Shown here piece by piece: positions 18,357-29,973 of a stretch of DNA of 64,000 bases. The number at the start of each line of letters is the position of its first letter. Within the stretch, counting starts at the first letter, position 1. The DNA is from an uncultured Gemmatimonadales bacterium (lineage in GTDB: Bacteria; Gemmatimonadota; Gemmatimonadetes; Palauibacterales; Palauibacteraceae). The translations under genes and the position numbers were made by a program. The stretch is taken from positions 192,001 to 256,000 of the forward strand of contig CAWANJ010000007.1 of assembly GCA_963783385.1 (NCBI GenBank), given 5' to 3'. The notes under the pieces were generated by a model. That model saw nothing but the letters and a program-made list of their open reading frames with translations. It did no database searches and was not told the origin of the DNA.

Positions 18357-18508
18357 GACGGGCAAGGTAGGCGGGGGGCGCGGCGGCCGCGACGCCGGGC
18401 TCCCGTGCGTCGCGACGCTGGACCATCGGCCGGCGGGGCCGCATCGTGCGCGGCGGAGCGGGGAGCGAGGGTCGGGGAGGTGGACGTCCCACCGGGAAGG
18501 AGGTGAGC

Positions 18509-20590
18509 GTGGAGGGTCGCGGACCGGGCGGGAGGTCGGATCGAAAGCTCCCCCGCGTGTTCTACCTGCTGGCGGGCCTGGTGCTCGTCTACTTCCTCCT
18601 GCCGCTCGTCCTCTTCCTGCCCGACGTGTCGCTCGCGCGCCTCGGGGCGGAGCTGGCGCGGGGAGGGCTGGCGCGCGCCGTCGCCGTGTCGCTGGGCAGC
18701 GCCACCCTGGCCACCGCCCTGGCGGGGCTGTGCGGCGTTCCGCTCGGCTACCTGCTGGCACGGGATGCGGTCCGACCCGCCGGGCTGGTGCGCGTGCTGT
18801 CCCTCGTCCCGCTCGTCCTGCCGCCGATCGCCGCAGGGGTCCTCCTGCTCAACGTGTTCGGGCCCTCGGGTCTCATCGGCGGGCTGCTCCAGGCGGCCGG
18901 ATGGAGCTTCGTCAACGCCTTCGGCGGCATCGTGCTCGCACAGTGCTTCGTGGTGGCTCCCTTCGTGATCCTGTCCGCCGAGGCGGCGTTCCGGGCGCTC
19001 GATCCGACGCTGGAGGAGGCGGCCACCACGCTCGGGCAGTCCAGGGGCCGGGTGTTCCGGCGCGTGTCCCTCCCGCTGGCCCGTCACGGCCTGGCGGCGG
19101 GGCTGGCCCTGGCGTGGACTCGGGCGGCCGGCGAGTTCGGTGCCACGATGGTGCTGGCCTACCATCCCCACTCCCTGCCCGTCTACCTGTGGGTCCAGCT
19201 GACCAGCACCGGTCTCGGCGCCGCCCTGCCCGTGGCCCTCGTGGCCCTGTTCCTGGCGGGAGTCGTGCTCGCCGCCGCGCAGGCGCTGGCGGGGCGGGAG
19301 GGCGCGACGCCGGCCGACCGCAGCCTGCGCGGTCCGGCGCGCCGGGCCGCTGCGAGTCCCGGAGGCGGGCCGCGTCGCTTCGCCGGGAGCGGTGCGCCCG
19401 AAGGGGAAGCGGCGGCCCCGGCGGCCGGCGCTCCCGGTCCCGTCCTCTCCCTGGACGTCGAGCACCGCCTCGGCGACTTCCACCTGCGCGCTCGCCTCGA
19501 GGTGGCGCGGGAGATCGTCACGCTGTTCGGGCCCTCGGGGGCGGGAAAGACCACGCTCCTCCGCCTGGCCGCCGGTCTGGAGCGGCCGAGGAGCGGCCGG
19601 GTGTCGGTAGGCGGACGGGACGCGTTCGCCTCGGAGGACGAGCCGGGCGGCCCCCGCTGGGTCCCGGCCGAGGGCCGGGCCGTGGGCATGGTGTTCCAGC
19701 AACCGGCCCTGTTCCCGCATCTGACGGTGTGGGAGAACGTCCTGTTCGGCGCCGGCGCGCACCCGGGCTCGGCCGCCCGCTCCGAGGCGGTCGAGCTCCT
19801 GGGGATGGTCAGGCTGGACGGCCTGGACACGCGTTATCCCTCCGAGCTGTCGGGCGGACAGCAGCAGCGGGTCGCCCTGGCCCGCGCGCTCCTTCGCCGA
19901 CCGTCCGTTCTCCTCCTGGACGAGCCCTTCTCCGGCCTCGACAGCAACATGAAGGAGCAGCTCCTGCTGGACGTGCACGACATCCAGAGGTCGCGCGGAC
20001 TGGGCGTACTCTACATCACGCACGACCTGCGGGACGCGTGCTCGCTGGGGGACCGCATGGCCGTGATCGCCGACGGGCGCATCGCCCAGGTGGGAGCGCC
20101 CCTGGAGGTCATTCGCCGGCCGGCGAGCCTGGACGTGGCCCGCTTCGTGGGAACTCGGAACCTGCTGCCGGGCCGGGTGGAAGCGGTCGGGGGGGGAACG
20201 GTCGCCGTGAGACTGGAGGGCGGCCCGGTGCTCCACGCCTCGGGCGCTCCCCCCTGCGCCCCCGGCGAGGAAGTGGTCGCCTGTGTCCGCCCCGAGGCCG
20301 TGGACCTGGTCGAGCCGGGCACGACGGAGGAGGGTGAGGGCGCGACCCTCCTGCCGGGCCGTGTCGTCCTCGAGCGGCTGCGCGGGGCGACCTCGACCCT
20401 GACTCTGACCCTGGAAGGCGCGGAGCAGGAGGTCCGGGCCCCGGCGCCGCTGCACGTCGAGGTCGAAGTCCCCGTCCGCTCCTACGAGGCACTCGGGGGA
20501 CATCGGAGGGACCGGTGGGTGCTGCGGATCCGTCCCTCCGTCGTGCACGTCCTGCGCTCGTCGCGCCCCTCCTCGGCCCACGGTCCCTGA
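18509..20590 (+). CDS. Fused molybdate/tungstate ABC permease + ATPase (ModB-ModC fusion)
   Basis: N-terminal PLVLPP, EEAATTLG, RAAGEFGAT (ModB). C-terminal GPSGAGKTT, LSGGQQQRVALARAL, LLLDEPF, TOBE-like tail. GGAGG RBS before the GTG. Confidence 0.88.
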   Translation: MEGRGPGGRSDRKLPRVFYLLAGLVLVYFLLPLVLFLPDVSLARLGAELARGGLARAVAVSLGSATLATALAGLCGVPLGYLLARDAVRPAGLVRVLSLVPLVLPPIAAGVLLLNVFGPSGLIGGLLQAAGWSFVNAFGGIVLAQCFVVAPFVILSAEAAFRALDPTLEEAATTLGQSRGRVFRRVSLPLARHGLAAGLALAWTRAAGEFGATMVLAYHPHSLPVYLWVQLTSTGLGAALPVALVALFLAGVVLAAAQALAGREGATPADRSLRGPARRAAASPGGGPRRFAGSGAPEGEAAAPAAGAPGPVLSLDVEHRLGDFHLRARLEVAREIVTLFGPSGAGKTTLLRLAAGLERPRSGRVSVGGRDAFASEDEPGGPRWVPAEGRAVGMVFQQPALFPHLTVWENVLFGAGAHPGSAARSEAVELLGMVRLDGLDTRYPSELSGGQQQRVALARALLRRPSVLLLDEPFSGLDSNMKEQLLLDVHDIQRSRGLGVLYITHDLRDACSLGDRMAVIADGRIAQVGAPLEVIRRPASLDVARFVGTRNLLPGRVEAVGGGTVAVRLEGGPVLHASGAPPCAPGEEVVACVRPEAVDLVEPGTTEEGEGATLLPGRVVLERLRGATSTLTLTLEGAEQEVRAPAPLHVEVEVPVRSYEALGGHRRDRWVLRIRPSVVHVLRSSRPSSAHGP

Positions 20591-20605
20591 CGCCCCGATC
20601 CGGAT

Positions 20606-20632
20606 GTGACGCGCGGCCCACCTCCCTCGTCA
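20606..20632 (+). promoter_or_regulatory. Candidate ECF sigma promoter GTGAC-N17-CGTC, copy 1
   Basis: GTGAC 20606-20610, 17-nt spacer, CGTC 20628-20631, upstream of the ECF operon. The same motif and spacing recur at 24285-24310. Confidence 0.5.
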
Positions 20633-20725
20633 CCGGGATGCTGGTGGTAGAGCGCGTGCCGGCGCCGAACGACCCGGTGCCCGGCGAGCGCGCGGCGAGC
20701 GATCACGGGACGAGCGAGGGAATCG

Positions 20726-21748
20726 ATGTCGGAGGATCTTACGGAAGGACGCCCGGAGCGCATCCGGGAGAGTCGCGGGACGCGCGCGCTCGCGCGGGGA
20801 GGGATCCTCGCCGGAGCCGTCGCGGCGGCGCTGGCGCTCGGGGCGTGCAGCCAGGGTGGTGTGACCGGGCCGGCCGGATCGCCGCGGGTCTCGCTCCTGC
20901 TCAAGGACGCACCCGGCGAGGTGACGCACGCCTGGGTGGACGTGAAGGAGGTCTATCTGCAGGGCCAGGTCTCGGACTCGAGCGCCTCCGACTCCGGGCG
21001 GGTGGTCCTGGTGGACAAGGAGACCGGCCTCATCGACCTCACGCAGCTCGCCGACAGCGCCATGAAGCTGGCGGACCAGGTCGTGGTGCCGGCCGGCACG
21101 TACTCGCAGCTCCGGGTGGTGCTGGGAGGTGCCGTGGTGGAAACGTCGACCGGGGTGTATTCCCTGGACGGCGCGGTGCCGCCGAACGGCGACGCGAGCG
21201 CGATCACGGGTCAGCTCCGGTGTCCGAGCTGCCAGCAGTCGGGTCTCAAGGTGAAGCTGCCGGGCGGTGCGCTCGACCTCCAGACCGGCTCGAAGGTCCT
21301 GGTCCTGGACTTCGACGTGACGCAGAGCTTCGGCCACGTGGCCGGCGCGTCGGGTTCCTGGGTGATGCATCCGGTGATCCGCACATCCACGGTCGAGACC
21401 AGCGGCTCCATCGCCGGAACGGTCGCGCTGGCGGACAGCGTCACGGTGCCGGCCTGCGGCGGCTCCGACCGGTCGCTCCAGGACTTCGTGCCGACGGCCA
21501 CGGCCACCCTCGACACCAGCAGCGTGACCGAGCAGGGCGCTGTGCAGGCCGACGGGAGCTACGCGATCGACTACCTGGCGCCGGCCACGTGGACGATGGG
21601 CTACGTCGAGGCCATAGGATACGAGGGCGGCGACACGCTCCGCTTCACGGCGACGGCCGATCCCGCCACCGTCAATGTGACCTCCGGTGCGACGGCCGCG
21701 TCCGATTTCACGGTGATCGGCGCCGAGTGCTCGGCCTCGGGGGGATGA
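20726..21748 (+). CDS. DUF4382-like lipoprotein with C-terminal Ig/carboxypeptidase-regulatory-like domain
   Basis: Lipobox LGAC; LLLKDAP, VPAGTYSQLR, CPSCQQSGLKV, LVLDFDVTQSF, WVMHPVI. Confidence 0.75.
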   Translation: MSEDLTEGRPERIRESRGTRALARGGILAGAVAAALALGACSQGGVTGPAGSPRVSLLLKDAPGEVTHAWVDVKEVYLQGQVSDSSASDSGRVVLVDKETGLIDLTQLADSAMKLADQVVVPAGTYSQLRVVLGGAVVETSTGVYSLDGAVPPNGDASAITGQLRCPSCQQSGLKVKLPGGALDLQTGSKVLVLDFDVTQSFGHVAGASGSWVMHPVIRTSTVETSGSIAGTVALADSVTVPACGGSDRSLQDFVPTATATLDTSSVTEQGAVQADGSYAIDYLAPATWTMGYVEAIGYEGGDTLRFTATADPATVNVTSGATAASDFTVIGAECSASGG

Positions 21749-21874
21749 TGACCGGACCCGCCTCGTTGTCAGGGACCGCCGCGGGCACCAAGTTGGCATG
21801 GACGTCGGCGGCGGATCTCGTCCGCCGTCCGTCCGGCAGCGCCGGACCGGTGAGCGTGACCCGACGAGGAGGCG

Positions 21875-22423
21875 GTGGCGGAAGACCTGACGGACGGCCA
21901 GGTGGTCCGGGTGGTCCTCGATGGCCGGCCCGACTCGTATCGACTCCTGGTGGAGCGATACCAGGACGTGCTGTACCGGCATGCGCTGCGCATGACGCGG
22001 CGCCCGGACGACGCGTCCGACATCGTCCAGCGCGCCCTGGTCAAGGGGTTCAGGCGTCTGGACGACTGTCGGCATCCGGACCGGGTGGGCGGCTGGCTGT
22101 TCCGAATCACCTCGAACCTGTGCAAGGACTTCCTCAAGAACCGCCGTCGCGACGAGGTGACCCTGGACGACGCTCCGACCCTGGTCTCCTCCCGGGGGGA
22201 TCCGGAGCGGGAGCTCGACCGGTCGGAGCTGGGACTGGTGCTCGAACGCGCGCTGTCCCGTTTGAGCGAGGACCAGCGGGAGGCGTTCCTGCTGAAGCAC
22301 ATGGAGGACCGGTCGTACGAGGAGATGTCGGAGATGCTGGACGTCTCGGTGTCGGCGCTGAAGATGCGCGTCCACCGGGCGCGAGAGGAATTGCGTGACC
22401 TGTTGATCGAGTATTCGTCGTGA
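21875..22423 (+). CDS. ECF-type RNA polymerase sigma factor
   Basis: 182 aa. Region 2 DASDIVQ...WLFRITSNLCKD; region 4 L..LSEDQREAFLLKH.E.RSYEEMSEML.VS.SALKMRVHRAR. GAGGAGG RBS. Confidence 0.93.
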   Translation: MAEDLTDGQVVRVVLDGRPDSYRLLVERYQDVLYRHALRMTRRPDDASDIVQRALVKGFRRLDDCRHPDRVGGWLFRITSNLCKDFLKNRRRDEVTLDDAPTLVSSRGDPERELDRSELGLVLERALSRLSEDQREAFLLKHMEDRSYEEMSEMLDVSVSALKMRVHRAREELRDLLIEYSS

Positions 22424-23139
22424 GCGACATGCTGACGCGTTACCTGGACGGAGAGATCGGGCTCGATGACCTGGATCCCGTGGAGCGGGCCGAGGCCGGA
22501 GCCTGGGAGGGGATGTTCGGCGACCTCCGCTCGCGGGGGATGACGCGGGCCCCGGAGGGGCTGACCGACCGGGTGATGACCGAGCTCGGGCTGAACTCTC
22601 CCGCCCGCGCCGGCCGGGGGGATGCGGCGCCGGTCCACGACGCGGCGCCGGCGGGGCACGGCGGCGCCTCGAAGGTGTGGCAGGCGATCACCTGGCCCTT
22701 CCGCCCCATCCGCGTGCCCGTGCCCCCGGCGCTCGCGCTGGCGGCCGGAGCGGCGCTGGCGCTGTTCGTGTTCGTGTGGCGTGGGGGCGGGCCGACCACG
22801 GCGGGGGAGATCGCGGCCGGGGTGGTGCAGCCCGCCAGCCTCAAGGCGCCGGCGGCGCCGACCCGCGTCTACGTGGAGCTGCGCTTCGACGCGCCGGACG
22901 CGTCCTCCGTGGCCGTGGCCGGGGACTTCACCAACTGGCAGCCCACCCTCGCGCTCCAGGATCGCGACGGGGACGGCGTGTGGACCGGGCTCGTGCCGAT
23001 GAGTCCCGGGATCCATCAATACATGTTCGTGATCGATGGCACCCGGTGGGTGACCGACCCGGGAGCGGCGCGTCACGTCGACGACGGGTTCGGGCATCGG
23101 AACGCGGTGGTGGCCGTGGCCGCACCGGCGGGCGCCTGA
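22420..23139 (+). CDS. Putative anti-sigma factor with TM helix and C-terminal CBM48/AMPK-beta-type glycogen-binding domain
   Basis: GTGA-coupled to the ECF sigma. N-terminal LTRYLDGE, single TM ALALAAGAALALFVFVW, then VAVAGDFTNW...GVW...PG.HQYMFVIDG.RWVTDP...DDGFG.RN. Confidence 0.8.
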   Translation: MSDMLTRYLDGEIGLDDLDPVERAEAGAWEGMFGDLRSRGMTRAPEGLTDRVMTELGLNSPARAGRGDAAPVHDAAPAGHGGASKVWQAITWPFRPIRVPVPPALALAAGAALALFVFVWRGGGPTTAGEIAAGVVQPASLKAPAAPTRVYVELRFDAPDASSVAVAGDFTNWQPTLALQDRDGDGVWTGLVPMSPGIHQYMFVIDGTRWVTDPGAARHVDDGFGHRNAVVAVAAPAGA

Positions 23140-23142
23140 GGG

Positions 23143-24288
23143 GTGGAAGCGGGCCGTAGCGCGGCCTTCACCACCCTCGCCCTGCTCCTGGTCTCGATTC
23201 CCGGGGCGACGGCCGCCCAGGACGTCCACGTGGAGGCCGATGCGGGCTTCTCGCGCTCGCAGCCGCCCGCGGGATCGCTGGCGGAGCCGGCCACCTATCT
23301 CCTCGGAGGCGTGCGGGCGAACGGGCACCCGGGGACGGGCCCCGGGCGCTGGTTCGGCAGTCTGTACGGCGGCGTCGGCCTGCAGGGGCGCGGCGGCGAC
23401 TGGGCGTCGCTGACGCTGGGAGGCGGCTGGAGCGCGGCGCTGGGCCGCAAGCTCGGGCTCGACGCCCGCGTGGAGGGGACGGCCTTCGCGGTCGGTTCCC
23501 CGACCTGGTTCCGGGCCGTGACGCTACAGGGCGTGCCCGAGCTCAGCTATCCCATCGGGTCCGTCTACGTGCTGCTGCGCGGGCGGCTCGGGATCGGCGG
23601 CTCCCGGTCCCGGGACGATCTGCCGGGGCCGAGGTCGCCGACCTCGGGTTCGCACCTGTGGTTCGCCGGCGGCGGGCCCGGCATCCGGGTCCCGGTCGGC
23701 GACCTGGGCGTGACGGGCCGCGCCGAGGCGTTCGGCTCGGTCGGCGGCGATTACGGCCTCGGCTCGATCGAGGTCTCGGGAGGCGACGGGCCGGTGGGGT
23801 GGAGCGCCTCCTTCCAGGTGTGGGGAACGCCCCGGGGGGCGCGCGCGACGGGCTCGATCAGCGTGAGCCTGCCGCTCGGCGGCGGATGGAAGCTGTTCGG
23901 GGCGGGCGGCCGCACGGAACCGGACCCGCTCGTCGAAACCCCGGTCGCGACGTACGCCACCGGCGTGGTGAGCCACCCGCTGGTGCGCCGGGAGCGGGAG
24001 ACCGCCGAGCTGTACCGGGTGGTCCGCTCGGGGCCGCGCCCGACGATCCGGTTCACGCTACGCGCGCAGGGTGCGAGCCAGGTGGCGCTCGTGGGGGACT
24101 TCAACCGGTGGAAGCCGCTGGCCATGCGCCGGCGGGACGGGATATGGACGATCCGGGTTCGAGTGGCGCCGGGCACCTACCACTTCGGCTTCATGGTCGA
24201 CGGCAAGTGGTTCGTGCCCGCCGATGCCCCTGGAATCGTGAGTGATGCATGGGGACGCGACAACGCCACGCTCGTCGTGAACCCGTGA
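23143..24288 (+). CDS. Secreted beta-strand-rich (probable outer-membrane barrel) protein with C-terminal CBM48 domain
   Basis: Signal peptide ending AAA-Q; Gly/aromatic alternating strands; C-terminal VALVGDFNRW...GIW...PGTYHFGFMVDGKW...DAWGRDNA. Confidence 0.7.
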   Translation: MEAGRSAAFTTLALLLVSIPGATAAQDVHVEADAGFSRSQPPAGSLAEPATYLLGGVRANGHPGTGPGRWFGSLYGGVGLQGRGGDWASLTLGGGWSAALGRKLGLDARVEGTAFAVGSPTWFRAVTLQGVPELSYPIGSVYVLLRGRLGIGGSRSRDDLPGPRSPTSGSHLWFAGGGPGIRVPVGDLGVTGRAEAFGSVGGDYGLGSIEVSGGDGPVGWSASFQVWGTPRGARATGSISVSLPLGGGWKLFGAGGRTEPDPLVETPVATYATGVVSHPLVRRERETAELYRVVRSGPRPTIRFTLRAQGASQVALVGDFNRWKPLAMRRRDGIWTIRVRVAPGTYHFGFMVDGKWFVPADAPGIVSDAWGRDNATLVVNP

Positions 24289-24311
24289 CGAGGAACGGGA
24301 GAGCGTCGTCT
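24285..24311 (+). promoter_or_regulatory. Candidate ECF sigma promoter GTGAC-N17-CGTC, copy 2
   Basis: GTGAC 24285-24289, 17-nt spacer, CGTC 24307-24310, upstream of the secreted helical protein gene. Confidence 0.5.
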
Positions 24312-24388
24312 GACGCTTGGACCCGGGCAGCGGGCCGTCCCGCCACGTTCGGGGCGGATCGCAGGGACGAGCGAGAGGGGTGCGAGCC

Positions 24389-25165
24389 ATGAGACCGGTA
24401 CGGGGAACGGGGCGATGTCGACGATGGATGACCTGCGTCGCCGTGGCGCTCACGGTGGCGGTCGCCCCGGTGTACGCGCAGGCCCAGCAGGCCGAGGCGC
24501 CGGCCTCGGAGAGCGAGGTGGGAGCGCGTCTGCGGCAGATGAGGAACCACTTCGGACCGGCGGTGTCGGCTCGCATCGATGACGTCCTCGCCTCGGCCCG
24601 GAAGGCGGGCGTCCCGGAGGACGTGCTGATCACCAAGGCCCTGGAAGGTGCGGCCAAGGGCGTGCCGGGCACGCGCGTCGTGGAGGCGCTCAAGTCCTAT
24701 TCCGAGCGTCTCCAGCGCGCCGATCGACTGCTGGGTGGCTCGGCCGGGAGCCCGATCCTGGTGGCCGCGGCCGATGCTCTCCAGAAGGGGGTCGATCCGA
24801 ACGCGGTCCGTGAGGTAGGCCGGGCGGCGGGTGGGGATCCCCTGCCGCTCGTGGTGCTCGGCGACCTCAGGGATGCCGGCGTTCCGGTGGACCAGGCCGT
24901 GGAGGTCGTCCGCCAGGCGCTGAAGCAGGGCCGCCACGGTGACCAGCTCCTGGATGTCTCCGCCGAGGTCCGGCGCGCCATCCGGGCGGGCAAGCCGCCG
25001 GGACAGGCGGCGCAGGAGGTCGGCAGGGCGCTGCAGGGGGGCAGGGGGCCGACCCCCGCGGGGAAGGGCCAGGGGAACGGGAATCCGCCGGGCGCGAAGG
25101 GAGGCGGCCCGCACGGCTCCGGCGGCGGTCCCCCCGGGCGTCCGCACGGCTCCGGCGGGGGCTGA
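24389..25165 (+). CDS. Secreted alpha-helical hypothetical protein with Gly/Pro-rich tail
   Basis: Signal peptide (VAVALTVAVAPVYA-Q); repeated GVP/GVD helical units; tail GPHGSGGGPPGRPHGSGGG. Start uncertain (24389 or 24424/24427 region). Confidence 0.7.
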   Translation: MRPVRGTGRCRRWMTCVAVALTVAVAPVYAQAQQAEAPASESEVGARLRQMRNHFGPAVSARIDDVLASARKAGVPEDVLITKALEGAAKGVPGTRVVEALKSYSERLQRADRLLGGSAGSPILVAAADALQKGVDPNAVREVGRAAGGDPLPLVVLGDLRDAGVPVDQAVEVVRQALKQGRHGDQLLDVSAEVRRAIRAGKPPGQAAQEVGRALQGGRGPTPAGKGQGNGNPPGAKGGGPHGSGGGPPGRPHGSGGG

Positions 25166-25176
25166 GCCCGACGGGC

Positions 25177-27477
25177 ATGTCGTTCCGGCGACGGGCACGC
25201 CGGCGTCGCCTCTCGTGGTCGCGGGTCCTCGCCTCCCTGCTGGCGGGAGCCGCGGTGACGACCGTCGTCGGCTGGCTGTACGTGCGACACGCGGCCGCCC
25301 GCATCGAGGCGACGTGGAGCGCCCATACGTCGAGCGCCCCCTCGCGGATCTACTCCCGTGCCCTGGACCTGTATCCGGGGCGGTTGCTGGACGGGGGAGA
25401 CTTCGCCCGCGAGCTGGAGGCTCGCGGCTACCGCCCCGCGCCGGCACACGGTCCGCTCGCCCCCGGCCAGTACCGGGCGGGGGGGGACCGCCTCGACGTC
25501 GGACTGCACGGCTTTCGGTATCCCCCTCCGGACGACGTGTTCGCGGGCTTCCCCCTGCGCATCCGCTTCCGGGATGGGCGCATCGCGTCCCTGACCGACC
25601 TGTCCGCCGACAGCGCCGTGGGGGACGTCCGCCTGGAGCCCGTCGTGGTCGCGGACCTCCTGGACCGACACATGGTGCTGAGATCGCCGATCACGCTCCA
25701 GCAGGTGTCAGCCTCTCTCGTCGAGGCCGTGCTGACCGTCGAGGACCGCCGCTTCTACGAGCACGGGGGGATCGACCCGGTCCGCATGGCCGGAGCCGCC
25801 CTGCACGACCTGCGGCACGGACGCCTCGAGCAGGGCGGTAGCACGCTCACCCAGCAGCTGATCAAGAACTACTACCTGTCGTCGAAGAAGACGCTGGGCC
25901 GGAAGCTGCGCGAGGCGATCATGGCGATGGTGCTCGAGCACGAGCACGACAAGGCCGACATCCTCCAGGCCTACCTGAACGAGGTCTACCTGGGCCAGGA
26001 GGGTCCGGTGAGCATCGTCGGGGTCCAGGAGGCCGCCCGCCATTACTTCTCCCGTGACGCGTCACAGCTCGACCTGGCGCAATCGGCGCTCCTGGCGGGG
26101 ATGATCCGCAGCCCCGCCGCCTACGATCCATTCCGGCATCCCGACGCGGCGCGCCGACGCCGGGCGGCGGTGCTGGGCATGCTGGCCGCCCGCGGGACCA
26201 TCGACCGGGCGGAGCGGGAAAGGGCCTCGCGCGAGCCGCTCCCCCGTCCGCCCCGCGAACGGCCCCTGGATGCGGCTCCCTACTTCGTGGACTACGTCGA
26301 GCGGGAGCTCGCGCGGCGCTTTCCCGCGGACGCGCTCCGCCGCGAGGGACTCAGGGTGTTCACCACGCTGGAGCCCCGGATGCAGCGAGCGGCCGAGGCG
26401 GCCGTGCGCTCGGGGCTCGCGGATCTCGAGAAGGCCCACCCCGACGTGCGGCGGTCCGGATTGCAGGCGCTCCAGGCGGCGCTGGTCGCGATGGACCCCC
26501 GCACCGGCGACGTGGTCGCCATGGTGGGGGGGCGCTCCTACCGATCGAGCCAGTTCAACCGGGCCACCGAGGCAAGACGGCAGCCCGGCTCGCTGTTCAA
26601 GCCGTTCGTGTACCTGACCGCGCTCGAAGACACGACCGGACGCTGGACGCTGGCCACCCCGGTCCCGGACTCGTCGCTGTCCGTGCGGGTCGGCGACACC
26701 GTGTGGACGCCGCACGACTTCGACGGTAGCGAGCACGGCATGGTGCCCCTGCGGGACGCGCTGGTGCATAGCTACAACCTGGCTACCGCGCACCTCGCCC
26801 TGGACGTGGGTCTGCCTCGCGTCGTCTCGACGGCCCGCGACCTGGGCGTGCAGGGACGCCTGAAGCCGGTTCCGTCGGTCTCGCTCGGGGCGTTCGAGAC
26901 CACGCCGCTCGTCATGGCCGATGCGTACTCGGCCCTGGCCGGGGGCGGGATCCGACCCGATCCCCTGACGGTGCTGCACGTGGTCGCCGCCGGGGGCTCG
27001 ACCGTCGAGGCACGCGAGCTCGAGATGCGCCGGGTCGCTCCCGCGGGTCCGGTCTACCTGGTGGACCGGGCCCTCCAGGACGTGCTCGACCGAGGAACGG
27101 CCGCCTCGGCGCGCCGGCTCGGCTACGGGGGACGGGCAGCGGGGAAGACGGGGACGAGCAGCGACTACCGGGACGCCTGGTTCGCCGGCTTCACGCCCTC
27201 GCTCGTGACGGTGGTGTGGGTGGGATTCGACGACAACCGGTCCGTGGGGCTCACCGGCGCCCAGGCGGCGCTTCCGATCTGGGTGCGGTTCATGGAGGCG
27301 GTCGGCGGTTCCCCGGACCAGCCGTTCAGCGTCCCCGACGGGATTCGTACCACCAGCGTGGACAGCGCCACGGGGCTCCTGCCGGGCCGGGGCTGCGGGC
27401 CGACCCGCGACGAGGTCTTCCTGCAGGGGACGGTCCCGTCTCGCCGCTGCGACTCGGTGGGGCGGGGCTCGCCGTGA
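25177..27477 (+). CDS. mrcB: Class A penicillin-binding protein PBP1B-type with UB2H-like insert
   Basis: Glycosyltransferase motifs EDRRFYEH.G, QGGSTLTQQLIKN, RKLRE, YLNEVYLG; transpeptidase S.xK (GSLFKP), SYN, GKTG. Confidence 0.9.
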   Translation: MSFRRRARRRRLSWSRVLASLLAGAAVTTVVGWLYVRHAAARIEATWSAHTSSAPSRIYSRALDLYPGRLLDGGDFARELEARGYRPAPAHGPLAPGQYRAGGDRLDVGLHGFRYPPPDDVFAGFPLRIRFRDGRIASLTDLSADSAVGDVRLEPVVVADLLDRHMVLRSPITLQQVSASLVEAVLTVEDRRFYEHGGIDPVRMAGAALHDLRHGRLEQGGSTLTQQLIKNYYLSSKKTLGRKLREAIMAMVLEHEHDKADILQAYLNEVYLGQEGPVSIVGVQEAARHYFSRDASQLDLAQSALLAGMIRSPAAYDPFRHPDAARRRRAAVLGMLAARGTIDRAERERASREPLPRPPRERPLDAAPYFVDYVERELARRFPADALRREGLRVFTTLEPRMQRAAEAAVRSGLADLEKAHPDVRRSGLQALQAALVAMDPRTGDVVAMVGGRSYRSSQFNRATEARRQPGSLFKPFVYLTALEDTTGRWTLATPVPDSSLSVRVGDTVWTPHDFDGSEHGMVPLRDALVHSYNLATAHLALDVGLPRVVSTARDLGVQGRLKPVPSVSLGAFETTPLVMADAYSALAGGGIRPDPLTVLHVVAAGGSTVEARELEMRRVAPAGPVYLVDRALQDVLDRGTAASARRLGYGGRAAGKTGTSSDYRDAWFAGFTPSLVTVVWVGFDDNRSVGLTGAQAALPIWVRFMEAVGGSPDQPFSVPDGIRTTSVDSATGLLPGRGCGPTRDEVFLQGTVPSRRCDSVGRGSP

Positions 27478-27908
27478 GCGGAGTGGCCTCGACATGCCGG
27501 ATCCCGGTCGGCCGGCGGACCGGAGCCCTCCCGCGCTTGATGCTGGCGCTCGTCGTCGGGCTCGGGATCGCCGCCTGTGCGGGCGGCGGGACGGAGGACC
27601 GGGCGGTGCCGGCGGTCGACTCCCGGGCGGCGGCGCCCGAGCGTGCGGCCTCGGAGCGGCTCGTGGAGCGCGGGCGCGGTCTGCTGGAGGGGAATCAGCC
27701 CCGCGAGGCCGCCTCCGTGCTGGAGCGCGCCGTGCGTGTCGACCCGTCGAACGGTCACGCGTACCTGGAGCTGGCCCGGGCCCGGATGGTCCTGGGAGAG
27801 CCCGAGGTCGCGCGCGGCCTCCTGCAGCGGGCGGCCGCGCTGCTCAGGCCCTACCCGGAGATGGAGGCCCGGGTGGACAGCCTCCGGGCGGTCCTGGGCG
27901 GAGGCTAG
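27474..27908 (+). CDS. Small TPR lipoprotein
   Basis: GTGA-coupled to PBP1B; lipobox IAAC; TPR helices AASVLERAVRVDPSNGHAYLELARAR. Confidence 0.8.
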   Translation: MSGVASTCRIPVGRRTGALPRLMLALVVGLGIAACAGGGTEDRAVPAVDSRAAAPERAASERLVERGRGLLEGNQPREAASVLERAVRVDPSNGHAYLELARARMVLGEPEVARGLLQRAAALLRPYPEMEARVDSLRAVLGGG

Positions 27909-27917
27909 ACCCGAACG

Positions 27918-27958
27918 GCGAACGCCTCCCGGCCGGCGGTCCGGCGGGAGGCGTTCGC
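27918..27958. terminator. Strong hairpin between convergent genes (probable bidirectional terminator)
   Basis: gcgaacgcctccc (27918-27930) pairs perfectly with gggaggcgttcgc (27946-27958), with an inner gccgg/ccggc stem. Confidence 0.7.
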
Positions 27959-27983
27959 GTGGTGCGTCCGGAAGTGCGGGTCG

Positions 27984-28580
27984 TCAGCCGCCCTGGCCGG
28001 AACCGCCCGAAGCGCCACCCTGGAGCGTCGCCTGGAGGGCCTCCAGCCTGGAGATCAGGGAGTCCGCGCTCGGGTCGATGTCGTTCATTTTCTTGATCAG
28101 ATCGGTGCGGAAGGTGTCCAGGTCCGCCGCGATCGCCTTGTCCTGCATGGCCTGCATCTGCGTCTGCTGATTCTTCTGGCCGAGCGTCTGATACTCGGTC
28201 ATGAGCGAGCGGATCTTGGCGGTGTCCTGGTTCTGCCGCGCCTGTTGGAACGACTGCTTGATCTGGTTCATCCGGTCGTTCCGCGTGGAGGTGGCGGAGT
28301 CGATGTCGTTCATCTTCTGCTCGATCTCCTGCTGCAGCGTGAACTGCTCCTCCTGGATGACCGAGTCCTGCAGGGCCTGCTGGCGCAGCTGGATGACCTT
28401 CTGCCCGACCTCCCGCATCTCCTGCTGGATCTTCTGGGTCGAGGCGTCCGTGCCGGCGCCGCTGCTTGCCTGCGCCGCGAGCGGCGCGGTCGCGAGCAGA
28501 GCCAGACCGGCGGCCATGGCCCCCAACCGGAGCGGCGGGGTGAACCTGTTGGCGCGAGTGACGAGCATAATCGTGCGCAT
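27984..28580 (-). CDS. Secreted Gln-rich coiled-coil protein
   Basis: Signal peptide LALLATAPLAA-Q followed by Q/K/M-rich heptad helices. Start uncertain. Confidence 0.75.
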   Translation of the reverse strand: MRTIMLVTRANRFTPPLRLGAMAAGLALLATAPLAAQASSGAGTDASTQKIQQEMREVGQKVIQLRQQALQDSVIQEEQFTLQQEIEQKMNDIDSATSTRNDRMNQIKQSFQQARQNQDTAKIRSLMTEYQTLGQKNQQTQMQAMQDKAIAADLDTFRTDLIKKMNDIDPSADSLISRLEALQATLQGGASGGSGQGG

Positions 28581-28878
28581 CCTTGTGTGGGTTGTGGAGC
28601 CTTCGGCGTCGTCGGTCGCCCCGTGAGCCGCTCGCGGCCCCTGGGCGTCGGAGCGCGAGAGTCCGGGGTTTCCGCCGACCGCGGCGGTCTCCCGGCGCCC
28701 ACGCAGGCGGATCAATATGCCCGGCTCCCGGCCTTGTTCCAAAGCTCGCCGCGTTGAGCGTCCGCCGTCGGCGTCCTATGTTCGGCCTCTGACAGGAGCC
28801 ACGCGCCGGCCCGAGCATCGTCTCCGTCCTTCCATACGACGAAATCGGGGCGTGGAAGGTCACGCTTCGGAGGCACGA

Positions 28879-29973
28879 GTGAGTCCAGGACAGCCCAGCG
28901 CCCGCATCGCGGGTACGGGGAGCTTCCTCCCCCCCAATCGGGTCGACAACAGGACCCTGTTCGAGCATCCCGGGATTCGAGAGAACTTCGACGTCGAGCG
29001 GGCGCGGGGTGCCCTGAAGGACGTGGATGCCGCCGCCCTGGATCCGGTCGAGGTGTTCGACCTGTGGGCTCGCCAGGTGACGGGCATCGAGGAGCGCCGG
29101 GTTCTGACGGAGGGTGACGGCCTCACCACCGAGCTCATGTGCGCCGAAGCGGGGCGCCGGGCCCTGGCGGCGGCCGGTATGGAGGCGGAGGAGCTGGACC
29201 TGGTCCTGGCCGCCTCGCTCACGGGCAGCCGGCAGGTCCCCAACGTCTCGTGCACGGTGGCCGCCGAGCTCGGCGCCCCCACCGTCGGGGGCTTCGTGCT
29301 CAACGCCGCCTGCGCCGGGTTCGTGTACGTGCTGGGGACGGCCTACGCGCACATTCGCGCCGGCACCGCCCGCAACGTCCTGGTCGTGGTCGGCGACGCC
29401 CTCTCCAAGATCACCGACTTCACGGATCCCAAGACGGCCGTTCTGTTCGCTGACGGAGCCGGGGCCGCCGTGCTCACGCGGTGCCCGGACGGGGAGGGGA
29501 TCCTCGGAGCCCCCTACGTGGAGGCGGACTACTCTTACGACGATCTCCACCTTCACGGGCAGGGCTGGGAGAGCCCCGACGAGCCCGAGGCCAAACTGCA
29601 CATGGGGGGCGGGCCGCAGGTGCTTCGTCAGGCCATCCAGGCCATGAAGCGCGTCGCCGACCGGGCCCTGGAGCGCACCGACCTGGGCTGGGACGACATC
29701 GACTACGTGGTTCCCCACCAGGCCAATCTGCGCATCACGCTCGGGCTGGCGAGGCACCTGCCGCTCGAGGAGGAGCGCGTCGTGCACACGATCCAGAAGT
29801 ATGGCAACCTGTCCGCTTCCACGGTGGCGGTGACGCTGGACGAGGTGCTCCGCGGGCGCCACGGCGCGCTCCCGAATCCGACGAACCTCGTGCTCACGGC
29901 CGTCGGAGGGGGGTACACGAGCTCCGGACTGGTCGTCTCCTGGCGTCCCCCGGGCGAGGGAGCGGAGGGCTAG
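28879..29973 (+). CDS. fabH: 3-oxoacyl-ACP synthase III (KAS III) family protein
   Basis: GTGSFLP, TGIEERR, catalytic NAACAGF, VLFADGAGA, PHQANLRI, YGNLSAST, VGGG. Confidence 0.88.
   Translation: MSPGQPSARIAGTGSFLPPNRVDNRTLFEHPGIRENFDVERARGALKDVDAAALDPVEVFDLWARQVTGIEERRVLTEGDGLTTELMCAEAGRRALAAAGMEAEELDLVLAASLTGSRQVPNVSCTVAAELGAPTVGGFVLNAACAGFVYVLGTAYAHIRAGTARNVLVVVGDALSKITDFTDPKTAVLFADGAGAAVLTRCPDGEGILGAPYVEADYSYDDLHLHGQGWESPDEPEAKLHMGGGPQVLRQAIQAMKRVADRALERTDLGWDDIDYVVPHQANLRITLGLARHLPLEEERVVHTIQKYGNLSASTVAVTLDEVLRGRHGALPNPTNLVLTAVGGGYTSSGLVVSWRPPGEGAEG

Follow-up and report, generated by a model that had tools for sequence, protein, structure and literature searches.

Five genes, read from the open reading frame list with its translations, occupy the + strand at 20606..25165 of the window (the whole 64,000-nucleotide stretch of DNA that was analysed). 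All five co-oriented genes claimed in an earlier note on this DNA were found, although a sixth gene in the same orientation, encoding PBP1b, starts 12 nt past g5. No gene begins at 20606, where that note had set the start; a promoter-like motif opens with this base. The genes and sites are as follows.

20606..20636, + strand: promoter-like site, GTGACG, 16-nt spacer and CGTCA; 120 nt upstream of g1; one of 19 core-pattern matches in the genome
20726..21748, + strand: g1, DUF4382 lipoprotein, 340 aa; Pfam DUF4382 8.4e-24, lipobox
21677..21707, + strand: weak promoter-like site, GTGACC-N16-CGTCC, inside the 3' end of g1 and 198 nt before the sigma gene; 12.0 bits
21875..22423, + strand: g2, ECF sigma factor, 182 aa; Sigma70_r2, r4_2, TIGR02937
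22420..23139, + strand: g3, single-pass anti-sigma-like protein, 239 aa; AMPK1_CBM and CBM_48, coupled to g2
23143..24288, + strand: g4, signal peptide, predicted 14-strand barrel and C-terminal CBM48, 381 aa; AF2 model, Foldseek, AMPK1_CBM
24285..24311, + strand: promoter-like site, GTGACG-N16-CGTCT, overlapping the g4 stop upstream of g5; exact core match
24389..25165, + strand: g5 (HEL), secreted helical protein, 258 aa from the likely ATG; the ORF opens at 24317
25177..27477, + strand: PBP1b; Transgly 1.3e-59, Transpeptidase 2.2e-26, TIGR02071 1.4e-178 (under its cut-off)

The five-gene arrangement with two CBM48 proteins was confirmed. Profile searches for AMPK1_CBM/CBM48 and DUF4382 placed g1, g3 and g4 above the cut-offs or at significance, and g3 and g4 gave the only PF16561 matches in the whole 3.54-Mb genome. 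The g2 gene starts with GTG behind a GAGGAGG ribosome-binding site, and its product matched Sigma70_r2 (8.3e-15) and r4_2 (2.6e-16) in Pfam and the sigma70-ECF model TIGR02937 in NCBIfam (9.1e-31). The first 4 nt of g3 take in the g2 stop codon. The g3 protein matched AMPK1_CBM at 1e-11 (45.3 bits against a cut-off of 26.8) and CBM_48 at 2.8e-6, over residues 154-235, and both models were above their cut-offs in 58/58 members of its family. A family alignment (A6) divides it into a putatively cytoplasmic N-terminal domain of YLDGE type, a transmembrane segment at about 103-121, which is the single hydrophobic stretch, and a CBM48 domain at 150-237 that would be periplasmic. These features bear out the description of an ECF sigma factor with a coupled single-pass anti-sigma-like protein carrying an extracytoplasmic CBM48. 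No Pfam anti-sigma model reached significance on g3. Its N-terminal domain showed a weak likeness to RseA (RseA N-domain in 1or7_C, E 0.056), and Pfam RseA_N and zf-HC2 each matched 1/58 family members. The g2 and g3 products would contact each other as sigma and anti-sigma factor.

The g4 gene starts 3 nt past the end of g3. Its product comprises a barrel at residues 27-283 and a CBM48 at 291-379 (AMPK1_CBM 9.7e-11 over residues 309-380, Pfam). The AF2 model obtained with alignment A3 had 14 strands, with a pLDDT of 86.1 and a pTM of 0.67, and its closest fold match in Foldseek was OmpG (4ctd_B, E 2.6e-7, TMt 0.66). The modelled fold agrees with the earlier placement of the second CBM48 protein in the outer membrane, and an OmpG-like barrel of 14 strands would by its topology put the g4 CBM48 in the periplasm. 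The likely ATG of g5 stands behind a GA-rich ribosome-binding site. HEL has a motif of the KALEGxAK type and its tail is rich in Pro and Gly, and no Pfam family reached its cut-off on g5; the HEL family itself numbered 3,388 representatives.

The gene set was compared across the phylum, and its neighbourhood was kept. Matches to g3 were found in 94/151 sampled Gemmatimonadota genomes and matches to HEL in 91/151, with 88 genomes common to both sets. A sigma gene followed by the anti-sigma gene, with overlaps of 4 or 8 nt, was present in 34/40 loci of 16 kb, and among those 34 modules 33 contained HEL and 23 a second CBM48 gene. The sigma gene was also upstream of the anti-sigma gene in 80/80 further named Gemmatimonadota loci (4-kb flanks, screened for the window's own genes only). 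Because the set recurs in these 34/40 and 80/80 loci from other genomes, the arrangement is far beyond chance. In the 54 loci of the 80 with at least 2300 nt after the anti-sigma gene, HEL was present in 54/54 and the barrel-CBM48 gene in 46/54, and 42 had the gene order of the window. The barrel gene is often absent in the nearest relatives of this genome's family (L033, L035-L038), and it is therefore not obligatory. HEL is no add-on; of all the partners it accompanies the anti-sigma factor most consistently. The conserved core across Gemmatimonadota is the sigma factor, the anti-sigma factor, the barrel-CBM48 protein and HEL, and the operon is a phylum-wide, so far uncharacterised bacterial signalling operon of Gemmatimonadota.

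The flanking genes were less constant. The DUF4382 lipoprotein was present as described (84.8 bits, cut-off 25, with a lipobox-like LGAC read from the N-terminal translation), but it is only an occasional extra, found upstream on the same strand in 14/80 relatives; g1 is an accessory member and probably a regulon gene. PBP1b lay downstream in 3/80 and 0/40 relatives and is a lineage-specific neighbour outside the conserved module. The gene upstream of g1 encodes an ABC protein with permease and ATPase fused; its best NCBIfam matches (none above cut-off) point to the tungstate/molybdate type, and it is not recognisable from its sequence as a sugar transporter.

A conserved motif, GTGAC-N16-CGTC, occurred at three positions, upstream of the sigma, HEL and DUF4382 genes. 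A position weight matrix (PWM), derived from the loci of the first set and favouring CGTCT, scored at least 14 bits before the sigma gene in 34/80 independent loci, compared with 2/225 background windows. The strict core had 79 matches in 597,770 nt, clustered upstream of these three genes, and lay within 200 nt upstream of HEL in 24/73 relatives; sites before DUF4382 genes scored at least 12 bits in 10/13 relatives. In the operon itself, the site before g1 reached only 3.7 bits with the PWM, and the weak site within g1, which no other site in the 260 nt upstream of the sigma gene surpassed, scored 12.7 bits in a 90%-identical relative (L073). The 19 core-pattern matches were counted over both strands of the whole genome, two of them on the + strand of the operon. 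Over the whole genome the pattern was no commoner than its counterparts with other spacers (19 matches for N16, 33 for N17), and no regulon outside the module emerged.

Structure prediction of the g3 CBM48 with HEL gave a high-confidence interface. The ipSAE was 0.85, 0.80 and 0.84 in three runs, whereas the best of 3 controls reached 0.01; the partners had pLDDT values of at least 86, and contacts agreed by at least 90% between runs. The ipSAE mark was reached by 116/157 solved complexes and 2/215 mismatched pairs, counts that are only rough for g3-HEL because self-built alignments were used. These alignments were unpaired, and the complex is a model score and not a measurement. No similar complex is known by sequence in the PDB, where HEL had no relative (best match E 0.058). 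The predicted interface involves W173, W210 and D222-F224 of g3 and L85, E86, G87 and K90 of HEL, all at least 92% conserved in 150-row alignments. Conservation of the interface was not higher than in the rest of the domain for g3 or HEL (Mann-Whitney p 0.28 and 0.27), since conservation extends to the core residues. In g3, W173, W210 and F224 align with AMPK W100, W133 and L146. The g3 CBM48 is predicted to bind HEL via the residues that hold glycogen in AMPK-beta, in place of a sugar or in addition to one, which is new here. The g4 family keeps the positions of this face (W323 1.00, W356 0.97, D368 0.91), and HEL may bind the g4 CBM48 as well. One HEL gene stood behind each CBM48 gene in 4 loci, and one database protein (P0340) is a HEL fused to a C-terminal AMPK1_CBM.

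We tentatively propose, at a little less than an even chance, that the module is a self-regulated four-component envelope signalling system of Gemmatimonadota in which HEL docks on CBM48. The single-pass anti-sigma factor g3 would hold the ECF sigma factor g2 at the inner membrane, and its periplasmic CBM48-fold domain would serve as the docking site for the dedicated secreted HEL, which would occupy the face equivalent to the glycogen-holding face of AMPK-beta. The OmpG-like barrel of g4 would bring a second CBM48, with the same face conserved, into the periplasm. A change in the outer membrane or periplasm might then shift which CBM48 holds HEL, or displace HEL, and this could expose or protect the anti-sigma factor and so release the sigma factor. 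The released sigma factor would transcribe the module genes, and the DUF4382 gene where present, from the GTGAC-N16-CGTC promoters. From these parts we infer which way regulation runs, how the sigma factor is freed and what acts as the signal.

The two CBM48 domains might instead both bind a glycan, be it alpha-glucan or some other one from the envelope or from outside, and control the anti-sigma factor in this way, with the glycan displacing HEL as a plug or co-factor. We consider this rather unlikely. The case for alpha-glucan sensing comes down to the domain name and the conserved aromatic residues, and with HEL predicted on the glycogen-type face of g3 it has a rival for that site. The CBM48 matches throughout the g3 family speak for it; moreover, g3 retains, or replaces conservatively, 5/6 of the AMPK sugar-site positions (W173, W210, F224, G225, N228), and the PDB entry closest to it in sequence is a CBM48-type domain from a type II pullulanase (5ot1, E 7.1e-13), so that glycan binding may still occur. 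Glycogen sensing is proposed in the ECF278 description (PMC7826278), and RsgI/SigI anti-sigma factors can sense polysaccharides (PMC10328401). However, K126 of AMPK-beta1 is essential, K126Q abolishing glycogen binding (PMC6274970), and its equivalent is a Met in g3, invariant across the anti-sigma family (alignment A7), and variable in the g4 family (Gly in g4 itself). The earlier observation that glycoside hydrolases and sugar transporters are lacking also held: when the 40 loci of 16 kb were clustered, CBM48, sigma and HEL were the only families to recur widely, and no glycan enzyme or transporter recurred. The genome does have GH13 genes, but their cluster is on another contig, with no core motif nearby among the matches listed, and a periplasmic source of alpha-glucan is not evident.

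HEL could also merely guard the periplasmic domain of g3 from site-1 cleavage, as in a stress system of the RseA/RseB kind, leaving the barrel-CBM48 and DUF4382 proteins as output and not sensors; we judge this unlikely. The proteobacterial sigmaE-RseA-RseB system, which is autoregulated, is encoded by an operon for a sigma factor, a single-pass anti-sigma factor and a third protein, which is periplasmic and attaches to the anti-sigma factor's domain in that compartment. The operon logic here resembles rpoE-rseA-rseB in its parts and its proposed autoregulation, besides the weak RseA likeness of g3. HEL always accompanies the anti-sigma gene, 6 to 8/54 loci and several nearest relatives lack the barrel, and HEL and DUF4382 genes have sigma-type promoters of their own. 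Yet Pfam and PDB sequence searches gave HEL no likeness to RseB/MucB, the periplasmic domain of g3 has a CBM48 fold, and the operon encodes an outer-membrane barrel that shares this domain with the same conserved face and lies inside the operon in most loci. The paired HEL and CBM48 genes and the HEL-CBM48 fusion likewise speak against this reading. That g3 is no anti-sigma factor and the genes are simply co-transcribed envelope proteins, as its failure to match a Pfam anti-sigma model might suggest, is very improbable: the 4- or 8-nt start/stop overlaps recur in relatives, the layout fits the +1 single-pass anti-sigma factor described for ECF278, the sigma gene is upstream in all 80 further loci, and the g3 family keeps the YLDGE-type N-terminal region and one transmembrane segment.

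Among known systems, FecI-FecR-FecA likewise encodes together an outer-membrane barrel with a periplasmic domain, an inner-membrane anti-sigma factor and an ECF sigma factor, and this likeness suggests trans-envelope signalling. FecA is a 22-strand TonB-dependent transducer, in contrast to the predicted 14-strand barrel of g4, and FecR, TonB-box and plug had no Pfam match on g3 or g4. RsgI proteins use CBM families other than CBM48 and work in a monoderm, with no outer-membrane partner and no HEL, and SigI is not known to be an ECF sigma factor of the g2 type. In SigI/RsgI of Clostridium thermocellum, too, a membrane anti-sigma factor with an extracytoplasmic carbohydrate-binding-type module controls its cognate alternative sigma factor, and the periplasmic domain of RsgI autocleaves at an Asn-Pro motif (PMC10328401). 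The earlier note knew of no characterised system of this architecture, and no experimental characterisation of ECF278 was found in the literature; an anti-sigma factor with a CBM48-type domain is, however, already catalogued as ECF278 (subgroup s1) in the supplement to ECF classification 2.0 (Casas-Pastor et al. 2021; PMC7826278), a purely bioinformatic description. Compared by description, it shares the +1 single-pass anti-sigma factor with a periplasmic 'glycogen recognition site of AMPK' (PMC7826278). The supplement's passages on ECF278 draw on Desulfovibrio, Syntrophobacter and Chloracidobacterium rather than on Gemmatimonadota, and mention neither a helical partner nor an outer-membrane barrel (PMC7826278). 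Its predicted −35 element, GTGAC, is identical to that of the operon motif, whereas the −10 element is GTATA as opposed to CGTC(T/A) (PMC7826278).

The window has a G+C content of 69–77%, and proteins nearly identical to its own are from Gemmatimonadota ('Candidatus Palauibacterales'). Between 20726 and 27477 it carries six genes placed head to tail on the + strand. The gene set of the earlier note, which described five co-oriented genes beginning at 20606, was borne out; no gene starts at 20606, however, and PBP1b had been omitted. The genes are as follows.

20726–21748, + strand: g1, DUF4382 protein (E 8.4e-24) with a lipobox-like LGAC
21875–22423, + strand: g2, ECF sigma factor of 182 aa (Sigma70_r2 8.3e-15, r4_2 2.6e-16)
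22420–23139, + strand: g3, overlapping the g2 stop by 4 nt, with one hydrophobic stretch and a C-terminal AMPK1_CBM (1e-11; CBM_48 2.8e-6)
23143–24288, + strand: g4, beginning 3 nt past g3, with a second, C-terminal AMPK1_CBM (9.7e-11)
ORF from 24317, probable start ATG 24389, + strand: g5 (HEL), a secreted helical protein of no Pfam family
25177–27477, + strand: PBP1b, a PBP1b-like class A PBP with a UB2H domain, beginning 12 nt past g5

The g2 product matched TIGR02937 with 106.7 bits (cut-off 42.9), carries regions 2 and 4 only, and is an ECF sigma factor (sigma-70 group 4); no NCBIfam equivalog scored over cut-off for it. The single TM stretch of g3 was assigned by reading the sequence, not by a TM predictor. 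Consensus scans of 20000–28500 for sigma-70 promoters and terminators gave nothing informative.

Relatives of g3 in the databases numbered 563 at E ≤ 0.001 among 8,000 candidates scored, and the 120 listed mostly cover 95–100% of the length (one fragment, 64%) and are from Gemmatimonadota where named. Within 151 sampled genomes of the phylum, a g3-like match was found in 94 and a HEL match in 91; when the two lists were compared, 88 genomes held both, six the CBM48 match alone and three the HEL match alone. Two unpublished genomes, G057 and G097, are counted here; leaving them out gives 92, 89 and 86 of 149. Three of the six CBM48-only genomes are from family f11, in which no sigma accompanies the lone protein (loci L061–L063), and two of the three HEL-only matches are weak. 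Family f6 lacked matches to both g3 and HEL (0/16), and family f10 had none to g3 (0/13) and two weak ones to HEL (2/13). Because related genomes are not independent, the co-occurrence is a pattern and not a test. About 60% of the genomes sampled carry the module, often in several copies.

Gene order was compared in two sets of loci. The first comprised 40 loci of ~16 kb each, 34 of which have the sigma followed by the anti-sigma with overlaps of 4 or 8 nt; HEL is present in 33 of those 34 and a second CBM48 gene (312–432 aa) in 23, and the usual order is sigma, anti-sigma, HEL, barrel-CBM48. All-against-all clustering of ORFs from 41 sources, the window included, recovered CBM48 in 41, sigma in 37 and HEL in 37 and no other widespread real family, the fourth cluster being an antisense shadow of the sigma. 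No glycoside hydrolase or sugar transporter was recurrent in the 40 clustered ~16-kb loci, which agrees with the earlier remark that neither accompanies the operon. The second set, independent of the first, was drawn from a pattern scan and consisted of 80 named loci, the best 80 of 193, all from Gemmatimonadota where named. The synteny was kept here: the sigma is upstream in 80/80, and among the 54 loci with at least 2300 nt past the anti-sigma, HEL is found in 54/54, the barrel-CBM48 in 46/54 and the window's order in 42. DUF4382 lies directly upstream in 14/80.

Several loci depart from the usual arrangement. Loci L039, L043, L048 and L050 have two HEL genes, one 3′ of the anti-sigma and one 3′ of the barrel-CBM48, which fits one HEL per CBM48 domain. 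The order in L056 (genome G118) and L057 (genome G125) is anti-sigma-like CBM48 gene, second CBM48 gene, sigma, HEL; locus L041 has two CBM48 genes and HEL, with no sigma detected.

The genes flanking the module were also compared. PBP1b may be co-transcribed with g5; it was rejected as a module member, being downstream in 0/40 and 3/80 loci, the latter being the three closest relatives (L073–L075). In the window it sits between the module and an ORF at 28717–29973 (+ strand) that recurs just 3′ of the module in same-family relatives, including L033–L038 (cluster 5, 8 loci). On the other side, a fused ABC permease and ATPase with a TOBE_2 domain (18446–20590, + strand) has counterparts upstream of the module in 11/80 relatives; its best NCBIfam matches were of the tungstate/molybdate type (WtpB/ModB, WtpC/ModC), none over cut-off.

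The C-terminal domains of g3 and g4 are members of the CBM48/AMPK1_CBM family. The HMM search proposed in the earlier note placed both over the cut-off of 26.8 bits (g3 45.3, g4 42.2), returned DUF4382 for g1, and matched AMPK1_CBM in 58/58 family members; the 3.54-Mb genome has no AMPK1_CBM match besides g3 and g4. At the N-terminus of g3, a YLDGE-type region is conserved in the family, and comparison with PDB 1or7_C (E 0.056) gave a weak RseA_N likeness. Among the 58 g3-family members, RseA_N matched one (E 0.0012) and zf-HC2 one (E 0.095), both weakly. Coupling to and position beside the sigma, the one membrane stretch, the YLDGE region, the weak RseA_N likeness and a layout like that of sigma group ECF278 are sequence features that point to g3 as a putative anti-sigma.

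A fold of g4 from its single sequence was poor (pLDDT 38.8). Adding an alignment of 33 rows raised the pLDDT to 86.1, and this model consists of a signal-peptide helix, 14 antiparallel strands (27–283) and a separate beta-sandwich (291–379). Foldseek ranked OmpG chains best (TMt 0.57–0.66; 4ctd_B, E 2.6e-7, TMt 0.66), with other porins next. The protein is accordingly modeled as a signal peptide followed by a closed, 14-strand antiparallel OmpG-like barrel, and the earlier designation of the second CBM48 protein as an outer-membrane partner holds; with 8–9% identity to OmpG, this is a likeness of fold and not family membership. Outer-membrane barrels with an even number of strands have both termini on the periplasmic side. 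Given the 14 strands of the model, the CBM48 of g4 should therefore be periplasmic, as for g3.

HEL is a large family for which we found no published name; a profile search returned 3,388 cluster representatives at E ≤ 0.001, 2,005 at ≤ 1e-10 and 732 at ≤ 1e-30. The window protein had no Pfam family over cut-off, and families shared among 38 members were only weak and unrelated, the commonest being T2SSF (3/38). A PDB search yielded no relative, the best match being a capsid protein at E 0.058. Atlas neighbours, reached via the 92%-identical database protein P0135, were Gemmatimonadota clusters, with no structure there.

We predicted the complex between the periplasmic part of g3 (122–239) and mature HEL (32–225) from our own alignments of 150 rows each, with 142 and 148 rows used. 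The ipSAE was 0.85, 0.80 and 0.84, and the best of three controls reached 0.01; the partners had a pLDDT of at least 86, and at least 90% of contacts agreed between runs. The ipSAE mark was reached by 116/157 solved complexes and 2/215 mismatched pairs, a calibration that is only roughly valid with own alignments. By sequence no comparable complex is known, so the score is unlikely to reflect a memorised structure. In the model, W173, W210, D222, G223 and F224 of g3 make the tightest contacts with L85, E86, G87 and K90 of HEL, so that the CBM48 would meet the most conserved motif of HEL with its canonical sugar face. The equivalent positions in the g4 family are conserved (W323 1.00, W356 0.97, D368 0.91). 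Taken together, the interface residues were no more conserved than the remaining residues of either domain (p 0.28 and 0.27).

A 549-aa database protein, P0340, has a HEL region (18–224) and a C-terminal AMPK1_CBM (478–547) that scores 26.8 bits, at the cut-off; it may be a true fusion or the result of two genes called as one.

The earlier note read the CBM48 domains as candidate sensors of alpha-glucan, or else as partners of each other. The architecture and the outer-membrane partner in that interpretation hold, but the putative alpha-glucan sensing now faces a concrete rival in the predicted docking of HEL on the sugar face. The residues of that face were mapped by aligning g3 with AMPK-beta2 (2f15).

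g3 W173: AMPK-beta W100
g3 M202: AMPK-beta K126
g3 W210: AMPK-beta W133
g3 F224: AMPK-beta L146
g3 G225: AMPK-beta G147
g3 N228: AMPK-beta N150

The passages on AMPK-beta1 in PMC6274970 report that glycogen binding is abolished by W100G and K126Q and weakened by W133L and G147R. By this mapping the aromatic platform is kept in g3 and the lysine is not (K126 to Met202). Among PDB sequences the best relative comes from a type II pullulanase, through its CBM48-type domain (5ot1, 7.1e-13), and ferulic acid esterases matched at E 0.0011. The organism has alpha-glucan enzymes, as a cluster of three GH13 (alpha-amylase family) matches lies on contig C9 of the source genome (G000:C9:236922-244676), the largest in a 1129-aa open frame, all unlinked to the module. 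A glycan that competed with HEL would reconcile HEL docking with glucan sensing.

In the mechanism that we consider the likeliest, built around HEL docking, g3 would hold the sigma, and the aromatic face of its CBM48 would hold HEL in the manner of the predicted complex, while the barrel would present another face of this kind at the outer membrane. If HEL were redistributed or displaced, the fate of g3 would change and the sigma be freed, possibly through regulated proteolysis by analogy with RseA and RsgI, and the freed sigma would re-express the module. A further-reaching reading, which we regard as tentative and on balance rather unlikely, is that the CBM48 fold serves here as a receptor for protein. 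HEL would be its diffusible ligand in the periplasm, shuttling or competed for between the CBM48 domains of barrel and anti-sigma; a signal would thereby pass from the outer membrane to an ECF sigma independently of TonB, and a glycan might compete for the aromatic face common to both domains and displace HEL.

Among the signalling schemes of bacteria, ECF sigma/anti-sigma pairs are a major one, for which few input mechanisms are known to us. Soils and sediments contain abundant Gemmatimonadota, whose genetics, to our knowledge, has hardly been studied. The module unites three parts for which we know of no experimental description, namely an anti-sigma bearing a domain of starch-binding type, a Pfam-less helical family of thousands of members and a CBM48-bearing barrel. 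If the predicted contact is true, a carbohydrate-binding face is used in signalling to dock a protein, and caution would be due in taking 'glycogen-binding domain-containing protein' annotations as evidence for sugar sensing. Because it points to particular residues and a particular promoter, the prediction is directly testable.

A known group of matching layout is ECF278, defined by Casas-Pastor et al. 2021 (PMC7826278) in a supplement, the relevant passages of which name other phyla and no partner genes. There, ECF278s1 has at +1 an anti-sigma that crosses the membrane by one TM helix and exposes an AMPK glycogen-recognition domain to the periplasm, the same layout as g3. The ECF278 promoter is given as GTGAC (−35) and GTATA (−10), whereas the module has GTGAC(C/G) at −35 (relatives and two window sites) and CGTC(T/A) at −10. 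The taxa named for ECF278 are Desulfovibrio, Syntrophobacter and Chloracidobacterium, unlike those of our best 80 of 193 loci. Among the papers searched, none dealt in its text with ECF278 or with an anti-sigma that has an AMPK1_CBM/glycogen-binding domain, and for CBM48 in connection with ECF anti-sigmas the one paper returned was an unrelated metagenomics study; other groups with the domain may stand in further parts of the same supplement. RsgI/SigI is the characterised case of an anti-sigma with a carbohydrate module, according to PMC10328401. The closest working analogy for HEL is RseA/RseB; with neither a Pfam family nor a PDB relative, HEL is not placed within RseB/MucB. FecIRA offers the closest analogy for the barrel, but the module is not of FecIRA type, as no Pfam TonB-dependent-transducer, signalling or FecR-type domain was found on g3 or g4 and the barrel has 14 strands.

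A promoter-like motif precedes the sigma in the first locus set, with GT(G/T)AC(C/G) and nGTCT separated by exactly 16 nt, the strict form being found in 18/33 upstream regions. A PWM was built from 16 such sites, with L036 and L037 left out as near-duplicates of L038. Applied to the 80 independent loci within 250 nt before the sigma, it scored at least 14 bits in 34/80 and at least 12 bits in 42/80, against a background of 2/225 windows at either threshold. The strict core, GTGAC(C/G)-N16-CGTC(T/A), had 79 matches in 597,770 nt of coding strand from the 80 loci and 19 on both strands of the 3.54-Mb genome, which makes it ~49-fold denser in the loci. The matches cluster at three places, before DUF4382, the sigma and HEL (24/73 loci with HEL). 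The window contains the following sites.

20606–20636, + strand: exact core match before g1
21677, + strand: weaker site of 12.0 bits before the sigma
24285, + strand: exact core match overlapping the g4 stop, before g5

With such sites before the sigma, HEL and DUF4382, the module seems to regulate itself, and DUF4382 seems to be one of its targets. The site before g1 is near-palindromic (GTGACG ... CGTCAC) and also matches on the − strand (20633–20607), facing the 3′ end of the ABC gene; this second match is probably without meaning.

Genome-wide, the core pattern was not enriched relative to other spacers, and the PWM gave 28 matches at ≥14 bits in the source genome versus 13 in the reversed sequence. 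Several of the 19 core matches are intragenic (RpoA, FtsK and GDPD fragments), and searches with PWM and core pattern found no coherent regulon beyond the module in this genome. The other matches lie ahead of a further ECF sigma gene, genes for a Gly-zipper and a zinc-ribbon protein, and ORFs without a name. This second ECF sigma (L153; G000:C1:473251-473988, − strand) lies just downstream of its exact core match, which could reflect cross-regulation or a related promoter specificity.
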